In this document: in pieces, positions 8,343 to 48,876 of the stretch
Numbering within the stretch: position 1 is the stretch's first letter
Layout: the number at the start of each line of letters is the position of its first letter
Sequence record: OR062947.1
DNA length: 64,000 bases
Reading direction: 5' to 3' (one strand)
Source of the DNA: Escherichia phage 348Ecol098PP
Notes under the pieces: generated by a model
Told to the model about the DNA's origin: nothing
What the model saw: only the letters and a program-made list of their open reading frames with translations
The model's database searches: none
Position numbers and translations under genes: made by a program

Positions 8343-9155
8343 TTAGAAACGAGATGCGACTTTCGCATATAAACTTACATTAGAATTCTGTTCTACCTGA
8401 GTTGTGGTAGTGTCAACTGCTTCGGCAACAAAATTAAGACCGGCAGCGTCATTGTCAACTGTATTTATACTTTCGGTAATAGCGGCTTCTTCTTTAGTAG
8501 AACCTTTAACCATTTCTACAATAGCAGTTAACTTAGTACCAAATGCGTCAGAATAATCCATACCTTCAACCAGGCCAATAACTTTTTCTTTCTGAGATTC
8601 AGTCAGGTCTTTTACGCTTTCATTAATAGCGGTTTCACGCTGAACGTAATTGATATATGCATCACGTTTGGTAACTTCTTCGAACAAACGAGCGGTTTCT
8701 TCTTTATGTTCGGCCAGCTCTTCTTCCATTTCTGCTACAACATCTACAGATTCTTCTGGAACAACAACGTTATGTTCAACAAACAGTTCTTTCAGACCAC
8801 CAAGCATGGATTCGAACAAATCAGCTTTAATGCCTTTATCAACTGCGATTTGGTTTTCTGCGAGCCATTCTTTTGCAAGATGGTCTAGGAATTTAGAAGC
8901 TTGTTCAGCCAATTTTTTATCAGCTTTCTCTTCAGCATCTTCTTTAGCCTTTTCAACTTCTTCTTCGGCCTTTTCGGCGATGGCTTTGATATGAGATTCA
9001 GCCAGTTTGACTGCTTCCTGCTTAACGGTGGCTTCGAATACAGTGCTGAAATTAGCTTTAACGTCCGGAGACAGTTCTACTGATTCGAAAACACTATTAA
9101 GAGCAACTGAAGTCTCGATGTTCTGAGCTTCTTTCAAAAGTTGTTCTTTGATCAT
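8343..9155 (-). CDS. 22: Prohead core scaffold protein gp22
   Basis: 270 aa, acidic coiled-coil, synteny 21-22-23. Confidence 0.85.
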   Translation of the reverse strand: MIKEQLLKEAQNIETSVALNSVFESVELSPDVKANFSTVFEATVKQEAVKLAESHIKAIAEKAEEEVEKAKEDAEEKADKKLAEQASKFLDHLAKEWLAENQIAVDKGIKADLFESMLGGLKELFVEHNVVVPEESVDVVAEMEEELAEHKEETARLFEEVTKRDAYINYVQRETAINESVKDLTESQKEKVIGLVEGMDYSDAFGTKLTAIVEMVKGSTKEEAAITESINTVDNDAAGLNFVAEAVDTTTTQVEQNSNVSLYAKVASRF

Positions 9156-9185
9156 TTTAGTGTCCTGTGGTTTAGATTACATTAT

Positions 9186-9193
9186 TATTTATA
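9186..9193 (-). promoter_or_regulatory. Late promoter TATAAATA (gene 22)
   Basis: Plus-strand TATTTATA upstream of gene 22 start. Confidence 0.6.
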
Positions 9194-9830
9194 ATGCTTT
9201 TAAACTCTCTGCGAGAGCTTTAAATGCTTCATCAGCACTGTTTTTGGTGGTTTCCACCGAATTTTCTGATTCTGATATTTGTTTAGGAGTAACCCAAGCA
9301 TCTGGAGCAGAAGGTCCCCATACGGCATCTACGCCGACGGTTAATTTAAATCCTTCGTTCACGATACGGTACCCTTTATTGGTGTCGGTTAAAGAACCAA
9401 GACCACGAGAGGAAACACCTGGAATCCAACCAGCTCGTATATTAGCAGCTAATTTATCACCGGGACCATGGTCGCCTTCAATAATTCTAGCACGTCCATA
9501 TACATCGTTTCCTTTCCACCACATATCTTCAATAATGATAGCGGCTTGCATAGGGTCAACATTTGCACGAGGTGGATGGTTTAATTCTCCAAGGGCTTGT
9601 TTGGTTGCGACTTGTTCTTTAATATAGTCACTTACTGCTTTTTCCAAAACGCGTTTAGGATATAAACGTTTATTTCGGTTAACAACCTCTGCCTGAAGAA
9701 AAATACCTTCTATATAAAGCCCTGGTTTTAAGCCAGAATCTTTTCCATCATGAGATTCCAACATTGGAACGCCATCAATAATCTCACCGGGTTGACCCCA
9801 AGTTTCAATAAGTAACTCGGGTTTATTCAT
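9189..9830 (-). CDS. 21: Prohead protease gp21
   Basis: 213 aa; size and synteny match T4 gp21. Confidence 0.88.
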   Translation of the reverse strand: MNKPELLIETWGQPGEIIDGVPMLESHDGKDSGLKPGLYIEGIFLQAEVVNRNKRLYPKRVLEKAVSDYIKEQVATKQALGELNHPPRANVDPMQAAIIIEDMWWKGNDVYGRARIIEGDHGPGDKLAANIRAGWIPGVSSRGLGSLTDTNKGYRIVNEGFKLTVGVDAVWGPSAPDAWVTPKQISESENSVETTKNSADEAFKALAESLKAL

Positions 9831-10255
9831 TAGCTTAATCCTAATGCTTTACGACGTTTAAGAGCCTTTTTACGCTTACGCAAGCCTTTAACTTGGCCTG
9901 AAGGGTTAGCTTTTTTAGCTTTAACGACCTTACGAGCGATTTGTCTACGTTTTGCTTTAGAAAGACCAGTGGTTTGGAACGCGTTACGTTCACGAGTTTT
10001 ACGGTCTTTAGTGCGGGTGACTTCACCACGAGAAGAAACATGTTTAACGATAAACTCATTTAACTGTTCTTCATTAATAATGGAAGCCATTGCAACAGCT
10101 AAATCCGTTTCAGTTTCAAGCATGTTCTCGATAATAGTATTTATATCGTCAATATCGAGAGCAGAAGACAATGCATCGATTCGGCCCTGTGCTTCAGGAA
10201 TAAGTGCTTCGACATTTTCGAGTACCAATTCATAAGATTCAGGGATAAGATACAT
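9830..10255 (-). CDS. 68: Prohead core protein gp68
   Basis: 141 aa, basic C-terminus, between 67 and 21. Confidence 0.7.
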
Positions 10256-10485
10256 TATTCATCGTCCTCATCATCTTCGTCTTCGTCGTCATCGCCTTCA
10301 TCAGCGTCGTCTTCCGAAGCTTTCTTTTCTTCTTCAGGTTCTTCGCCTTCAATCAAAAATTGAGACGCGATTTCTGCTTTGCGTGCTTCAATCAAACGAA
10401 CCGTTTTTTCTGCCATTGCACTTTCAAAAAACTTTCGAGTAGCAACGAGGTCGTTTGATTTAATAGCTTGAATTAAATCGTCCAT
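10255..10485 (-). CDS. 67: Prohead core protein gp67
   Basis: 76 aa with poly-acidic C-terminus [18 protein letters not shown]; between 20 and 68. Confidence 0.7.
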
Positions 10486-43546: not shown

Positions 43547-44140
43547 ATGAACACACTGAAGAAACTTGTCGAATTCATCCGCACTAAATTGGGTACTGCT
43601 ATGGCTAAAAATCTGACTGTCGAAGAACAGTATAACGCAGCTGCAGATAAGTTGATTACCCAAATCAAAGAACTAAAAACGGCTTCTGTTAAATCTATTA
43701 ATGAAGAAAAACGTATTCGCGAACTTGTTAATGAAAAGAACAAGCAAGCCGCTTCTAAGGAACGTGAAATTCGTAAGCTCCTGGCCGAAGGACAAGATGT
43801 TACCATGCATGCTAAGCTTGGTCTTCTGTATCGTCGAACTGCCGAACAACTTAATACAAAAGCTGACGGGTATGCCGCTATGCGAATTGAAATTGCTCGT
43901 AAGGTGGTTGAACTTGATGATGCTCGTCAGAACCTGGCAATCAAACTCGAATACATTCGTGAAACTCGAGCAGCCAATGCCCTTGGTATCTCTACGGCCG
44001 ATGATGTAATTGAAATCGCTGCACTGACTAAGGTTGATATCGAAGACACTCTGACTCGTGTTGAAACGTTCAATGGCACTCCAGCAGGTGTCGAAACCAC
44101 TTCTGCTGATGTACAAGAATATATTAACTCTTTGAAATAA
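43547..44140 (+). CDS. Coiled-coil protein with PspA/IM30-like character
   Basis: 197 aa from [10 protein letters not shown]; long amphipathic heptad pattern; segment pattern reminiscent of PspA (weak, by eye). Confidence 0.35.
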
Positions 44141-44148
44141 AATAATAC

Positions 44149-44170
44149 GGAGGACTCCGGTCCTCCTTTT
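44149..44170 (+). terminator. Rho-independent terminator
   Basis: GGAGGAC-TCCG-GTCCTCC + TTTT. Confidence 0.55.
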
Positions 44171-44189: not shown

Positions 44190-44792
44190 ATGCGAAACCA
44201 AAATAATGATATTGACTCAATGTTCGAAGAGTTCCGAGATAAGGTAAATCCACCTACGTCTTTAGTTGATTCATTACGATATGTTGCAACCGGACGTAAA
44301 TGGTACTGGTCGTCTTCTTATGAGACCACCGAGAAAACGGCTAGCCATAGCAGAAAATCTTTATTAGCCCCAGGTATTATGATTCATGATATCGGAGCTA
44401 TTGCTAAACTAGTTGCAGATCATGATATTAGATTCACCGATTTCGTTGCTCCTACATGGTCTGTTTGTTGTTTAAACACTGAATTGGAATATATCAGCGA
44501 ACGCTCTGAAGATTATTATGGTTTTAGAGATAAGCTTCTGAGGTCTAATATGTTTTATATCGATACAGAAGTTCTAGTCGATAATAAAAAATATTACTTT
44601 ACGTTAATCATCGATTCTGAAACTATGTATGAAGGCAAGCCTTTGCTTAAAAGAGTTGATGCTTTAAGTGCTATTGATGCGCTTTATGAAACCATGGTTG
44701 TTAGTCCTAATTTCACTAACAATTTAATCCTTGAGCAATTTATTATGGAATGTAGAGAATATGTCAAAGCCAACCCTGTACATGCCAAGTAA
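44190..44792 (+). CDS. Hypothetical protein with C-terminal FIMECR tail
   Basis: 200 aa from MRNQNN; ends ...EQFIMECREYVKANPVHAK. Confidence 0.45.
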   Translation: MRNQNNDIDSMFEEFRDKVNPPTSLVDSLRYVATGRKWYWSSSYETTEKTASHSRKSLLAPGIMIHDIGAIAKLVADHDIRFTDFVAPTWSVCCLNTELEYISERSEDYYGFRDKLLRSNMFYIDTEVLVDNKKYYFTLIIDSETMYEGKPLLKRVDALSAIDALYETMVVSPNFTNNLILEQFIMECREYVKANPVHAK

Positions 44793-45153
44793 GCCCTGGG
44801 CATACGAATACAAACGTAAATTAATCCCAAACGAAGTACTATTTGGCCCTATTTTAGCTTTAGCATTTTTAATCTTTATGATTATAGGAGCTGTTTTAGA
44901 TTCTAGTGAAGTTATATCGTCTGATGCAGTGTTTTTACTTATTATAGCTGGGTCGTTTATTGTGCCATTTTTATTAATGCCTATTAATTGGGTGGGATAT
45001 TGGTACCAAGGACGTCATCACAGAGCTAGAGTACGCGAATGGAAAATTCAATGTGCAAAAGCAAGAGCTCAATATGACGAGGCTGTTAAAAAATATGAAT
45101 ATGACGAAGCCATGGAATTCGTTAAGGAGATAAGATGCAAAAGCCTGAACTGA
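44761..45153 (+). CDS. Small membrane protein with C-terminal EFVKEIRCK tail
   Basis: 130 aa from ATG at 44761; two hydrophobic helices. Confidence 0.45.
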   Translation: MSKPTLYMPSKPWAYEYKRKLIPNEVLFGPILALAFLIFMIIGAVLDSSEVISSDAVFLLIIAGSFIVPFLLMPINWVGYWYQGRHHRARVREWKIQCAKARAQYDEAVKKYEYDEAMEFVKEIRCKSLN

Positions 45154-45162
45154 ATTTATGCT

Positions 45163-45192
45163 GTTTACGCTTCTCAAATGATTAGTTATAAT
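45163..45192 (+). promoter_or_regulatory. Early promoter GTTTAC / TATAAT
   Basis: GTTTAC 45163-45168, 18-nt spacer, TATAAT 45187-45192. Confidence 0.5.
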
Positions 45193-45255
45193 GAACTCCT
45201 AGCTAGACGTGAAAATGAAACAATCGAAAACTTTATTAAGGAATGTAGAAAATGA
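45178..45255 (+). pseudogene. Vestigial 25-codon ORF retaining the ENFIKECRK tail
   Basis: MISYNELLARRENETIENFIKECRK; contains the -10 of the promoter for the next gene, so likely a remnant 3' end. Confidence 0.3.
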
Positions 45256-45557
45256 GTAAGATTATTGAAATTAAAGTACCAGAGTTTAATGATGCCAAAT
45301 CCGCTTCAGATGCAATTTATAAACTTCTGAATCAAGCTGAACGTATCGAAGAAGAAGCAACAAAGATCGCAGACCAATATGCCGTATCATTTTCTGTAGG
45401 TGATTATGGTAGCGGTCGTACTTATTATCCTAAGGGTGAAATCGTATCCCAGTGGATGAAAAATGAAATTGAAAATAATGGTGGCGATGTTAAGCGTGAA
45501 GGTAATGGTTACGTTATTACTGAAGGTGCTTGGGTTTCGTCTTCTGCGTTGTGCTAA
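45252..45557 (+). CDS. Small protein, WVSSSxxC-tail family member 1
   Basis: 101 aa; ends GAWVSSSALC. Confidence 0.5.
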   Translation: MSKIIEIKVPEFNDAKSASDAIYKLLNQAERIEEEATKIADQYAVSFSVGDYGSGRTYYPKGEIVSQWMKNEIENNGGDVKREGNGYVITEGAWVSSSALC

Positions 45558-45566
45558 GGAATCATT

Positions 45567-45839
45567 ATGTCTAAAGAACAAACCGAACTGGCTGAAGCTG
45601 TAGCAAAAATCTATGCAGCTATTGAGGCTGCCAAAGAAATTGCTGATAAACAAAACACAACATTCGACTTGCACCCAGCTTATGGTATGGGTGGAACCTA
45701 TCATTCACCCGGACATCTTAAAGCCGATCTTGAACGTTGTACAAAAAACGGCTATGCTGAATGGGCTGACGTTTACCAATACGACTACAACCTGAGCCTC
45801 GAAACTGGTGGTTGGGTCGCATCTTCTCACACTTGCTAA
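45567..45839 (+). CDS. Small protein, WVSSSxxC-tail family member 2
   Basis: 90 aa; ends GGWVASSHTC. Confidence 0.5.
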   Translation: MSKEQTELAEAVAKIYAAIEAAKEIADKQNTTFDLHPAYGMGGTYHSPGHLKADLERCTKNGYAEWADVYQYDYNLSLETGGWVASSHTC

Positions 45840-45848
45840 GGAAACTAT

Positions 45849-46046
45849 ATGTCTCGTGAATTAGATTGTGCTGTACGTACCGCAGTAGCTGCCCTGGAAA
45901 ACCTGTTCCAAATTGCAACAGAAGAACGCGAAGAAGTTACATTGTGGATTGAAGATAACGCAGGTCTGAATCTCCAGGACGCGATCTCATTATCCCACAA
46001 TAGTATCACTGTTCAAGGCTGGGTATCATCTAGTTATTCTTGCTAA
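45849..46046 (+). CDS. Small protein, WVSSSxxC-tail family member 3
   Basis: 65 aa; ends QGWVSSSYSC. Confidence 0.5.
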   Translation: MSRELDCAVRTAVAALENLFQIATEEREEVTLWIEDNAGLNLQDAISLSHNSITVQGWVSSSYSC

Positions 46047-46050
46047 AACA

Positions 46051-46088
46051 GTTTACAACAAGATAGGGCTATGTTATAGTAGTCCTAT
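46051..46088 (+). promoter_or_regulatory. Early promoter GTTTAC / TGTTATAGT with imperfect IR ATAGGGCT / AGTCCTAT
   Basis: GTTTAC 46051-46056, TATAGT 46075-46080. Confidence 0.55.
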
Positions 46089-46108
46089 CAAATTAAATGG
46101 AGTCCACA

Positions 46109-46348
46109 ATGATTTATTACGAAAGTATCGGAACCAAAGTGGTTGCTAAAACCATTACTCGTGAAAAGTTTGCAAAGATATTCGATATGCGTTATAAAAA
46201 ATCTGAACACAAAGGCATCCGATTCGAAGATGCGCACTGTACAATTTGCCCTTATAATGAAGACATAAACGGTACAATCGTTCCATTGGTAGAGGCTTCA
46301 CACGATGACCTCTGGGATGAATATGATATCGCATGTCGTGAAATTTAA
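46109..46348 (+). CDS. Hypothetical protein
   Basis: 79 aa from MIYYESIG with SD GGAG. Confidence 0.4.
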   Translation: MIYYESIGTKVVAKTITREKFAKIFDMRYKKSEHKGIRFEDAHCTICPYNEDINGTIVPLVEASHDDLWDEYDIACREI

Positions 46349-46376
46349 GTTAATGAATTAATCCGAGGAAAATATT

Positions 46377-47333
46377 ATGATGTTAGTTATTGGTTCTCGT
46401 GCACTTCACTATCACGGTCTTATTGATTCTAGCGCTATCAAAAATAGTGATTGGGACTTTATTGCGGACCAAGGTTCTTGGAATGCATTCAAAAATCAAA
46501 TGATGGGTGTATATGTTCACCAAGATAACCCTAATGTTCAAGTTTTCAAATGCTTCCATAATGGACGCGAAACTCATTTTGAAGCATATATTGTTCCGGC
46601 AATCACTAATGTCCGTGAATTAGTCGGTGAACTCACTCCTGAAGATTTCACGTCTTCTTATGACCTTTTAAAATACGCCAAGAAAAATTTGACTAAAGAC
46701 CGTTTGAACGGGTTTTACTGGGCAACTCCTGAGATATGTCTTGCAATTAAGATGTCTCATCGTTTCAAGAAAAATAATCCATTCTTTTTAAAGACTATGA
46801 ACCATATTCAGTATCTTCGTGGTAAAGGTGTTACACTGAACGATGAACTTACTGAAATTATGCTGAAACGCCAGAAAGAAACCTTGAACTATGCTCACCC
46901 AGTTCTTGACACTTCTAAAAGTGCGTTCTTTAAAGATGACATCTATACATATGACCATGATACTATTCATGAAGCCATTGCACTAACAGACCGTCCAGCG
47001 TATACATTTTATATGAAAGATGGTTCTGAAGTCATGACCTCACGCGAGAAGTTCGAATCGTTACCCGAAATGATTAAACTGGCTGGTGTATACGAAGAAT
47101 CATGTGTACTAGCATTAGAACGTTCTCAAATTCCTAATGACTTTAAAATTAACCCTGAAGCCAGTTTTATGATGGCATTGGAAAAAGTCTGTACAAGCAT
47201 CACCTCCGGTTGGTTCCGTGAATACGCATACGAGAACTATTATGAAGTAGTGGCTATGTATCATAAGCTCGGCAAAAATGATTACGTCAAACGTTTCAAA
47301 CAAAATTTCCATATGGTAAAACCTTTCAAATAA
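46377..47333 (+). CDS. Hypothetical protein (318 aa)
   Basis: Long ORF; N-terminal IGSRAL...SDWDF loosely resembles a nucleotidyltransferase motif (weak). Confidence 0.45.
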   Translation: MMLVIGSRALHYHGLIDSSAIKNSDWDFIADQGSWNAFKNQMMGVYVHQDNPNVQVFKCFHNGRETHFEAYIVPAITNVRELVGELTPEDFTSSYDLLKYAKKNLTKDRLNGFYWATPEICLAIKMSHRFKKNNPFFLKTMNHIQYLRGKGVTLNDELTEIMLKRQKETLNYAHPVLDTSKSAFFKDDIYTYDHDTIHEAIALTDRPAYTFYMKDGSEVMTSREKFESLPEMIKLAGVYEESCVLALERSQIPNDFKINPEASFMMALEKVCTSITSGWFREYAYENYYEVVAMYHKLGKNDYVKRFKQNFHMVKPFK

Positions 47334-47345
47334 CTTCACAAAACT

Positions 47346-47383
47346 GTTTACGCAATTATAGGACTATGTTATAGTAGTCCTAT
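47346..47383 (+). promoter_or_regulatory. Early promoter GTTTAC / TGTTATAGT inside IR AATAGGACTA / TAGTCCTATT
   Basis: GTTTAC 47346-47351, TATAGT 47370-47375; IR arms 47357-47366 and 47374-47383. Confidence 0.55.
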
Positions 47384-47403
47384 TAAAACATGAGGAGAAT
47401 ATT

Positions 47404-47709
47404 ATGAAATTAGGCGAAACCAACCGAATTGGTCTTTTAACAATATTTGCATCACCTTTTTACGCAACTCTTTCTGTTGCAGTATTACAAAAGGCTTACA
47501 GTATGGATGGTGTTCCTGGTTTTGTATTCTTATCACCGTTTTTATTATTCGTCGGAGCTTTGTTATTATATGCCACGACTAGTTTCGACCATAATGTCTG
47601 GGTCAATTATAAATGTAAATTGTCCGAAGAAGAACACGCAGAAGCTCGTAAAAAAGCTATTGAATCTACCAATCTAGAAAATTTCATTAAAGAATGTCGA
47701 GGAAAATAA
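47404..47709 (+). CDS. Small membrane protein with C-terminal ENFIKECRGK tail
   Basis: 101 aa; two hydrophobic helices. Confidence 0.5.
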   Translation: MKLGETNRIGLLTIFASPFYATLSVAVLQKAYSMDGVPGFVFLSPFLLFVGALLLYATTSFDHNVWVNYKCKLSEEEHAEARKKAIESTNLENFIKECRGK

Positions 47710-47710
47710 T

Positions 47711-48397
47711 ATGAATAGTTCTAAAGTGTTTAATAGTCAAGCTCGTGCAGTAGGTGGTTTTGCTCATGCGATTAAAAACGACCAGATTAAAAACGAGCCT
47801 ATGTTCTTTAACTGCGATTTGAATTTTGCTTTTGATAATGGTGGTCCAATTACTCGTAGCTTTATCATGAACTTGCCAGATGATTGGAACACCGACCAGG
47901 TTGTATTTGATTCACGAGTCCACATGCTGATGCCAGGTTGGTACCCTGCTATTCCTGGATATCACCATGACGATGTTCCACGCCCTGATATTCCAGTTGG
48001 TCAACACTTTATTACTGCAGGACAACCTGACTATGACAATCCTCGTTATTTGTCTGAACATATTCTTGGTCTTGTTAACGCTGATGTGTGTCCTACTCAT
48101 TTTGCAACAGGAACTGCAGAGTTCAGTCAGATTCCTGATGGCGAACTTATCTATCGCCAGTGGCACAAAGAAGTCCTCGAAAAAATTGAAAAAGGTGAAC
48201 TAGAGAAATGGGAAGCTCCAGATCGTACTCTTCTTCAGTTTGATTGGCAAACATGGCACACTGGTTCTCGTGCAATTAGTAACGGATGGCGTTGGTTCGG
48301 ACGTGTATCTCGTAATACAGACCGAGTTAAAAAGATTACCAATGAAATTCGTGTCAACGCTCAAGTTTATCTGGAATTCCCTATGGAAGGCTGGTAA
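47711..48397 (+). CDS. Hypothetical protein (228 aa)
   Basis: Starts 2 nt after previous stop; His-rich PGYHHDD segment. Confidence 0.45.
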   Translation: MNSSKVFNSQARAVGGFAHAIKNDQIKNEPMFFNCDLNFAFDNGGPITRSFIMNLPDDWNTDQVVFDSRVHMLMPGWYPAIPGYHHDDVPRPDIPVGQHFITAGQPDYDNPRYLSEHILGLVNADVCPTHFATGTAEFSQIPDGELIYRQWHKEVLEKIEKGELEKWEAPDRTLLQFDWQTWHTGSRAISNGWRWFGRVSRNTDRVKKITNEIRVNAQVYLEFPMEGW

Positions 48398-48876
48398 TGA
48401 TTAACAATAATATAGACGATGGCAATGAAGGTATTTCGTATTATTCAGTAGATTGGACAGGATGTCCATCCTACTTAGTGAAACATATTTGCCAAGAATT
48501 TAAAATCGACCAGCCAGCAGGTATTATCGTGAACAGATACATTAATGGATATCAACCTATCGATGAAGTAATACGAACAACTCAAGCTGAGCTTGAAAAG
48601 TTTTTCAATAAGTGCCAATGGATAACAGGATGGATTATATTTGTACCGTCGGTATGGTTTTTCGGTACTAAGGTGAGTTCTTTCGGTTTTGTTGATATTA
48701 TTGCTATCTTATTAGCATCTACTATCGTAAGTATTATTGGTGGTATTATTGGTGGAGGTACTGTAGGCATCATTATTAATCTTGTTAAAAGTAGTTTACA
48801 GGAACGTAAAGACAAGATAAAAGCCAAGAATAATGAAGTTGAACGTTTTATTACCGAATGCAGGAATTTGAGATGA
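48397..48876 (+). CDS. Membrane protein with C-terminal ERFITECRNLR tail
   Basis: 159 aa; Gly/Ile-rich helices IIGGIIGGGTVGIII. Confidence 0.5.
   Translation: MINNNIDDGNEGISYYSVDWTGCPSYLVKHICQEFKIDQPAGIIVNRYINGYQPIDEVIRTTQAELEKFFNKCQWITGWIIFVPSVWFFGTKVSSFGFVDIIAILLASTIVSIIGGIIGGGTVGIIINLVKSSLQERKDKIKAKNNEVERFITECRNLR

Follow-up and report, generated by a model that had tools for sequence, protein, structure and literature searches.

A conserved C-terminal peptide on otherwise unrelated early proteins encoded upstream of nudE in T4-type phages

The tail-bearing locus

The present study concerns a short peptide tail that recurs at the C-termini of several small open reading frames (ORFs) in a 64,000-nucleotide (nt) stretch of DNA from Escherichia phage 348Ecol098PP (OR062947.1), hereafter the window. 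Judging by the 5 kb that surround the tails, which are 96-97% identical to Mosigvirus genomes (moha, APCEc01), the 64-kb window belongs to a Mosigvirus, i.e. an RB69-group T4-like coliphage. In the annotated relative APCEc01 the same region lies between tRNA genes and nudE/e (lysozyme), and the gene order e.6-e.5-e.4-e.3...e.2-nudE-e is common to the window, APCEc01 and T4, by which the region is recognisable as the counterpart of the T4 'e.2-e.8' block, a set of early ORFs without assigned function. A first-pass annotation of the window, made by a model from the letters alone, had reported the tail on five otherwise unrelated and unnamed ORFs. All five peptides were found where it had placed them, but they belong to four genes plus one deletion stub, and the carriers of the tail, apart from one Mosigvirus-specific ORF, are in fact members of the known T4 families e.2, e.3, e.4 and e.5, with which they share full-length similarity and the same order upstream of nudE.

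Downstream of an e.6 homologue (43547-44140, assigned by similarity and gene order), the first carrier is an e.5-like soluble ORF of 200 amino acids (aa) (44190..44792, + strand; phrog_2607), which starts at an ATG with an AAGGAG Shine-Dalgarno sequence and is 47% identical to a T4-type e.5 representative. Its tail, EQFIMECR (44733-44756, +), is separated by 11 codons from the stop and by 4 nt from the ATG (44761) of the second carrier, an e.4-like ORF of 130 aa with two predicted transmembrane segments (2-TM; 44761..45153, +) that matches T4 e.4 over 128 aa (53% identity, E = 2e-57). The tail of this second carrier has diverged to MEFVKEIR followed by CKSLN (45112-45135, +), with the Cys displaced to +6, counting the Phe as position 0. 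The remains of an e.3 homologue follow, comprising a 16-codon 5' stub (MQKPELNLCCLRFSND and stop; 45135..45185, +) and a 25-codon 3' stub (45178..45255, +) that bears the tail ENFIKECR (45226-45249, +). Further downstream are a Mosigvirus-specific 2-TM ORF of 101 aa without a T4 counterpart (47404..47709, +; phrog_9798), with the tail ENFIKECR at 47677-47700 (+), and the e.2 homologue of 159 aa (48397..48876, +; phrog_2203), which comprises an N-terminal domain, two hydrophobic segments and the tail ERFITECR (48841-48864, +). Its identity follows from a homologue that one source names 'e.2 conserved hypothetical, predicted membrane protein [RB69]'.

Each tail adjoins the next gene, lying <=4 nt or ~10 nt before its ATG or overlapping it, and the synonymous differences between the tails (ttt/ttc, tgt/tgc, aga/cga/agg, aaa/aag) are as first reported. 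So are the two strongly hydrophobic segments in each of the ORFs 44761, 47404 and 48397 (residues 26-44 and 57-75 in 44761, 9-27 and 37-55 in 47404), the transmembrane assignment being one of hydropathy only, with two hydrophobic 19-mers of mean Kyte-Doolittle value >=1.7 in each ORF. A six-frame scan of the 64 kb returned four copies of the strict pattern E.F[IV].E[CI]R and five of the core F[IV].E[CI]R, all of them on the + strand at 44.7-48.9 kb; random windows from a first-order Markov model contained on average 0.005 and 0.19 copies, respectively, and none of 200 attained the observed counts. The e.4-type FVKEIRC is diverged and without Cys at +4, yet its tail scores 15.5 bits on a position-specific scoring matrix (PSSM) of the tail, compared with <=9.0 bits for the non-carrier 10-mers of the window; one of the 26 clusters from which the matrix was built is the e.4 tail of the window.

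For three of the families the search database lists precomputed Pfam accessions, PF26896 (e.2), PF26876 (e.5) and PF26873 (e.4). Searches of Pfam, NCBIfam and PDB with single sequences, and with profiles for e.5 and e.6, returned nothing above threshold for the carriers or their neighbours. The first-pass annotation had placed the small 2-TM carriers in the class that includes T4 superinfection-exclusion and lysis-control proteins; the PHROG families of the membrane carriers are of unknown function, no family with an assigned function was matched in PHROGs, Pfam, NCBIfam or PDB, and no described holin, antiholin, Imm or Sp family was matched in PHROGs, Pfam or NCBIfam. For e.5, a word-indexed homologue search returned only three close relatives and an exhaustive search of representatives only two clusters, while a search with the tail profile recovered only fragments of the carrier families already known. 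We found no description of a tail common to several of these families, which are themselves already known; a search of the literature for the motif strings, for C-terminal motifs in T4-like phages and for hyperplastic regions gave nothing relevant beyond papers on the PeSL cassettes considered below, consistent with the initial impression that the tail had not been described.

Two of the carrier genes exist in disrupted form. The 25-codon ORF had been counted as an independent gene, and alignment with the intact APCEc01 homologue (APCEc01_164), a 2-TM protein of 119 aa with 35% identity to T4 e.3 (E = 2e-24), identifies it as the 3' stub of e.3: relative to APCEc01, a 239-bp frame-shifting deletion has left the two stubs. 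The genomes of moha, G2469 and PTE-Eco05 each match the region in a single segment exactly as long as the query, which suggests that they share the deletion. A promoter-like TTTACG-17-TATAAT (45164-45192) falls within the remaining e.3 3' stub. In the T4 reference sequence (NC_000866, 67491-67960), e.2 is annotated as 102 aa, compared with 162 aa for the intact protein of close relatives, and has been shortened by paired single-base indels, a -1 and then a +1 some 77 nt further on; this truncation is either a pseudogene or an old sequencing error. The T4 tail NNFITECRKLK, ending at the stop codon, is still encoded directly upstream of nudE despite the indels.

Distribution and consensus of the tail

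The motif was sought in related phages, as the first-pass annotation had advised, using 42 loci taken from IMG/VR and anchored on NudE. One to five carriers per locus were recovered in 37 of these 42 loci, representing many genera. The five tail-less loci are the most distant, NudE matching there only partially or weakly (E >= 5e-14), at identities of <=45% over the segment matched; distant loci that do bear carriers include those of Serratia phage Muldoon and Erwinia phage Cronus. Syntenic loci with tails were found in Dhakavirus, Gaprivervirus, Kanagawavirus, Moonvirus and one Klebsiella phage, where the tails read NSFIEECRK, ETFIKECKS, NFIKGCRK, NWIKGCRK, AFIQMCRRNQNVS and NFINSCRIIK, each running to the stop codon, and DFVEQCR followed by further residues. 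In T4 itself, e.5 terminates in EKFVKECREYVKAITIPSK, e.3 in KEFVIDCRKIK and e.4 in MKFVKESRCKSQS, the last being a Cys-less variant. The pattern [FW][IVL]..C[RK] has five copies in the six frames of the T4 genome when ORFs with at least 30 upstream codons are considered: three are at the C-termini of e.5 and e.3 and the 3' end of e.2, one is in an antisense frame, and one is internal (FLQGCK, gene 30.3). In Muldoon, 2-TM ORFs beside nudE (9000-10400) are annotated 'putative holin or antiholin', a label that appears to rest on topology alone, and one of them ends in DEFIKYCKDKY.

The placement of the motif is strongly biased. Across the 37 loci, the coding strand upstream of nudE contains 128 matches to [FW][IVL]..C[RK] within 16 residues of a stop and three deeper, whereas a similar number of residues on the coding strand downstream of nudE contains one near a stop and three deeper, and antisense ORFs contain three within 16 residues of the stop and five deeper. 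A further positional count over the loci gave 151 versus 4. Overall, tail copies lie 0-22 residues from the C-terminus, and the Arg is followed by 0-15 mostly basic or polar residues.

Based on these copies, the general motif can be written Φ-[E/N/D]-x-[F/W]-[I/V]-x-x-C-[R/K], with a core of Φ(-3), [FW](0), [IV](+1), C(+4) and [RK](+5). Giving one vote to each family, position -3 is L, F or I in 78%, positions -2 and -4 are mostly E, N or D, and +2 is K in 45%; by cluster, Cys is present in 96% and R or K in 100%. In the e.4 family I, V, M or S takes the place of the +4 Cys, with T4 and Mosigvirus having a Cys at +6. The Glu residues at -2 and +3, which had been included in the motif as first described, are lineage features rather than part of the cross-phage core, Glu at +3 being present in only ~28% of clusters and 36 of 114 nucleotide contexts.

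Conservation at the peptide level

The 114 distinct nucleotide contexts of the tail vary at synonymous positions, with Phe encoded by TTT in 70 and TTC in 37, Ile by ATT in 60, ATC in 21 and ATA in 8, and Cys by TGT in 61 and TGC in 52. Codon use at F, I and C is near background, and all six Arg codons occur. Replacements conserve the type of residue, not the bases, with seven W for F, 18 V and seven L for I, and ten K for R. A degenerate DNA version of the pattern occurs 130 times in frame near the 3' end of long coding-strand ORFs, while in short or closed frames there is no excess (39 on the coding strand versus 36 antisense). These data indicate that the tail is kept by purifying selection at the amino-acid level, in agreement with the initial proposal that selection acts on the peptide; the downstream ribosome-binding site alone does not account for it.

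The same conclusion is reached from the spacing to the next gene. In 118 of 131 contexts the next ATG follows the Arg codon by 1-28 nt. In the remaining 13 the gap is 48-116 nt, in several cases with a visible early-type promoter in between, and the motif is intact there. In most copies a purine-rich Shine-Dalgarno sequence is found 5-10 nt before the adjacent start, placed in differing codons, either K-E or K-G at x-x or an AGG Arg codon. The tail does not behave as a translation-initiation region, which would be conserved regardless of frame and would need an adjacent start, and Rfam gave no match at E <= 1 to 43-50 kb of the window. The frame and codon data thus largely refute an element conserved at the nucleotide level only, the outcome that the first-pass annotation had named as fatal to its proposal; RNA-level constraint is a secondary overlay that does not explain the tail motif.

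Relatedness of the carrier proteins

After removal of the tail, 153 carriers fell into 28 clusters by BLASTP, two of them spurious alternative-frame products, leaving ~25 families. These include many 2-TM families, among them 47404 and the e.2-, e.3- and e.4-like proteins, and at least four soluble families without hydrophobic segments, namely the e.5-like proteins and families of 92-99, 109-116 and 131-162 aa. HHalign joins many of the clusters at 60-95% probability, over the last 20-45 residues only; without the tail the probability is <25%, except between e.5 subfamilies (74%) and for one pair of 92-99-aa soluble families (36%). The alignment of 47404 with e.3, for example, spans 13 tail residues only. 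Apart from the e.5 subfamilies, the carriers thus have no detectable relationship beyond the tail, as first described, and fall into ~25 clusters that BLAST does not link.

Within families the tail is better conserved than the rest of the protein. An alignment of the e.5 superfamily covers eleven lineages, whose members share 14-22% identity with the window protein, the 47%-identical T4-type sequence excepted; besides Met1 and one Asn, only the F, C and R of the tail never vary in it. Large families have mean column identities of 28-46% in the body and 52-62% in the tail, with F and C invariant. This sample was chosen by motif, and a search with tail-less queries served as a check on circularity: every intact homologue recovered bears the tail, and the only hits without it were disrupted genes or artefacts of the wrong frame. 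Neighbouring paralogues in tandem, whose tails are almost the same (NWIKGCRK and NWVKGCRK in the Klebsiella phage, FIKGCRNG and FVKGCRNG in ZX14) indicate that duplication contributes to the spread of the tail. The DNA of non-orthologous tails has an identity of 0.528 within a genome and 0.522 between genomes (30 nt). Taken together, these comparisons show a peptide that is conserved as such, placed strictly at the C-terminus, restricted to one early gene cluster and attached to unrelated bodies.

Possible role of the tail and alternative explanations

The hydrophobic positions of the tail (-3, 0, +1 and +4) follow a 3-1-3 spacing, which is typical of one face of a helix, and its hydrophobic moment is 0.27-0.49 at 100 degrees; the tail is probably a short amphipathic helix. 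The C-terminal regions of the 2-TM carriers are rich in K and R and, as such segments are cytoplasmic under the positive-inside rule, the C-termini are suggested to face the cytoplasm. Three other interpretations were set aside: a CaaX-like lipidation box, since polar or basic residues follow the Cys; a MinD/FtsA-type amphipathic helix for membrane targeting, for which the tail is too charged; and reading of the tail DNA as a RegB site (GGAG), MotA box or late promoter, motifs that are absent from the sequence.

As the most likely role of the tail, to which we give about even odds, we infer a cytoplasmic tag by which its carriers dock to, or assemble on, a common partner, in line with the targeting or interaction module suggested by the first-pass annotation. 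The early proteins of the cluster upstream of nudE would retain the tail at their cytoplasmic C-termini under purifying selection, and three to six different carriers in each phage would be gathered by it at a single partner. The carriers might serve as partners for one another, the membrane proteins holding the soluble ones, or all might bind the same host or phage protein at the membrane's inner face. The tail DNA usually also contains the Shine-Dalgarno sequence of the next gene, which adds a nucleotide constraint on top. A more ambitious and rather doubtful extension is that the tail joins an early membrane-associated assembly, with 2-TM proteins as anchors, soluble subunits such as e.5, and the Cys providing a metal site or thiol chemistry, so that e.2-e.5 would form one inner-membrane machine. 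If so, envelope remodelling, superinfection exclusion or counter-defence might be among the functions of the machine.

Several observations weigh against a docking tag. Any partner is hypothetical. Non-orthologous tails have an amino-acid identity of 0.45 in the same genome and 0.42 in different genomes; the lineage-specific co-variation that would hint at a co-evolving partner common to the carriers is thus not seen. A Cys that hardly varies is unusual at a purely hydrophobic docking position and may reflect chemistry, such as a metal site or a modification, rather than packing; neither this Cys nor its loss in the e.4 family is explained by simple helix docking. The membrane carriers, being small and fast-evolving, could be undetected paralogues that keep an ancestral end. 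AGA and AGG make up 52% of tail Arg codons compared with 22% in the background, a sign of RNA-level constraint as well, which is what one would expect of a purine-rich codon that also serves as part of the ribosome-binding site. AlphaFold2 models of the e.5-like protein (4-sequence alignment) and e.2 (9 sequences), each with a mean predicted local distance difference test score of 39, are too poor to use; at this low confidence they place the tail in a helix (179-194 in the e.5-like protein, 98-158 in e.2), a weak hint of helicity only.

Common ancestry could account for the tail if one small membrane protein had been duplicated in tandem and its N-terminal part replaced, the tail being kept for an intrinsic role in the folding, topology or stability of a cytoplasmic helix. 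Every carrier lies in one gene cluster, the tandem paralogues of the Klebsiella phage and ZX14 have near-identical tails, and two pairs of 2-TM clusters (0-4 and 0-11) align weakly over their full length without the tail (E ~1e-3, probability 12-25%), all as such a history would have it. At least four soluble families bear the tail, however, so that the intrinsic role would need to hold across unrelated folds, and similarity between membrane and soluble carriers is confined to the tail; on balance we consider this origin unlikely. The tail might instead be a stability or modification signal, either a C-degron that times the removal of early proteins or a site of Cys or Arg modification, for instance by phage ADP-ribosyltransferases. 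Such a signal would suit both the near-invariant Cys-Arg pair and its position at the C-terminus of early proteins, and T4 encodes the Arg-specific ADP-ribosyltransferases Alt, ModA and ModB and the Lon inhibitor pin (as annotated). Classical C-degrons are read at the extreme C-terminus, whereas the residues after the tail Arg vary in sequence and in length (0-15), and the e.4 family is without Cys at +4, making a signal of this type quite improbable in our estimation.

It is very unlikely that the tail acts in cis as a nascent peptide, modulating termination or re-initiation from the exit tunnel and thereby coupling the next gene. With at most ~16 residues to the stop the tail would be inside the tunnel at termination, the next ATG is <=11 nt from the Arg codon in 88 of 131 contexts, and ATGA stop/start overlaps are common; but the distances are not fixed (0-15 codons to the stop, 1-116 nt to the start), unlike those of known arrest peptides, the motif is kept where a promoter and >48 nt intervene before the next gene, and compact phage operons bring every C-terminus beside a start codon anyway. 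A purely nucleotide element, in which the bases constitute the downstream initiation region (A/U-rich enhancer, Shine-Dalgarno sequence and spacer) and the peptide simply follows from the frame being fixed, would explain why x-x is often K-E or K-G, encoded as AAGGAA or AAAGGR, why AGA and AGG are enriched, and why most tails lie 1-28 nt before the next ATG. We nevertheless judge it highly improbable, given the use of six Arg, two Cys and two Phe codons at near-background frequencies for F, I and C, the lack of excess in other frames and short ORFs, the persistence of the tail without an adjacent start, exchanges of F for W and I for V that preserve residue type rather than bases, the failure to match Rfam, and other junctions of the same operons that lack the peptide. 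Scarcely any credence can be given to the tail DNA being a recombination linker, i.e. a short homology patch for modular shuffling as proposed for the coding sequence of the capsid-targeting sequence (CTS) and for PeSL cassettes: gene content is variable and PeSL-like promoter stem-loops occur in the region, but an identity of ~53% over 30 nt is too low for homologous exchange, and no sign of gene conversion was seen.

The tail is the most conserved feature of its carrier proteins and links the membrane and soluble members of the cluster, offering a single experimental handle on what the cluster does. T4 is the best-studied virulent phage, yet e.2-e.5 and dozens of neighbouring ORFs in its relatives are not known to have a role. 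The tail is also useful as an annotation marker for fast-evolving ORFs and reveals disrupted copies such as e.3 of the window and e.2 of T4.

Neighbouring features

Several other features of the region were noted. The e.6 homologue (197 aa) has a mean column identity of 78% across genera and is followed by a strong hairpin terminator (44149-44166). Read by eye, its sequence looks helical and coiled-coil-like; no relatives were found in Pfam, NCBIfam or PDB, and a PspA-like identity had no sequence-level support. Three small tandem ORFs downstream of the e.3 stubs (45252-45557, 45567-45839 and 45849-46046; phrog_899, phrog_4882) share another C-terminal motif, terminating in GAWVSSSALC, GGWVASSHTC and QGWVSSSYSC, respectively, and other genera have three to five such paralogues with termini of the form W-[VI]-x-S-S-x-x-C-stop or WQPSSC before the stop. 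PeSL-like early promoters (GTTTAC, 17 nt, TATAGT) lie within an inverted repeat (ATAGGRCTATGTTATAGTAGTCCTAT) at 46040-46085 and 47335-47385.

Between two tail carriers lies an unusually widespread ORF of 228 aa (47711-48397; phrog_1843). T4-like phages of enterobacteria and Aeromonas have copies 75-99% identical to it, and phages of Gordonia and Mycobacterium have homologues of 28-33% identity. Aeromonas phage 31 has the gene near rIIB and ndd, a different context with no tails close by, and the tail is thus not tied to the 228-aa gene.

Comparison with known systems

The PeSL promoter/stem-loop cassettes have been described for the hyperplastic regions of T4-type phages (PMC2839356, PMC4122927). 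The PeSL-like elements of the window are separate from the tails, and the tail DNA, being ~53% identical between families, is not itself part of such a cassette. Generic stop/start coupling junctions resemble the tails in that most tails hold the next Shine-Dalgarno sequence and end in ATGA or TAATG overlaps, but such junctions are without a conserved peptide, whereas the tail peptide is kept across synonymous codons. The membrane carriers are similar to class II holins, antiholins and T4 Imm in size, in their two hydrophobic segments and in a basic C-terminal region; there is, however, no sequence relationship, the promoter context of the carriers is early-type, and the tail is also found on soluble proteins.

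A closer conceptual parallel is provided by the T4 sliding clamp gp45, to which gp43, gp33 and gp55 dock by shared C-terminal peptides. Here too several unrelated phage proteins have a similar short C-terminal peptide, although the likeness is one of concept only: the hydrophobic motif and the proteins are different, and the partner, gp45, is known.

The first-pass annotation had compared the tail with the leader of the internal proteins. In T4 the CTS, MKTYQEFIAE, is the N-terminal leader of IPI, IPII, IPIII and Alt, and is removed by the gp21 protease, which cleaves after Glu. Both elements are peptides of ~10 residues common to unrelated proteins encoded in polymorphic T4-type loci, the CTS acting as an address tag, and in the CTS, too, an F-[IL]-x-E core is preceded by a hydrophobic residue at -3 relative to the F. 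As a concept the comparison stands; as a sequence element the tail is different. The CTS is N-terminal, directly after the Met, and the tail C-terminal; the leaders are without Cys-Arg, and the tail does not conform to their consensus, M-K-T-[YF]-x-E-F-[IL]-x-E, nor does it have the gp21 site ([LI]-x-E), the Glu at +3 being present in only ~28% of families. The in-register scores of CTS leaders on the tail PSSM run from 6.5 to -2.1 bits, compared with 15.5-26.7 bits for carriers. Seven window ORFs (38892, 39253, 41928, 50062, 50837, 51162 and 51502) begin with a CTS-type leader and are a large, dispersed repertoire of internal proteins. CTS proteins are contents of the head, whereas tail carriers are early membrane or cytoplasmic proteins. 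The tail would provide a second case, beside the CTS, of one short peptide reused on the interchangeable genes of hyperplastic regions and, if it is indeed an assembly label, it would be the C-terminal, early-phase counterpart of the capsid-targeting leader.

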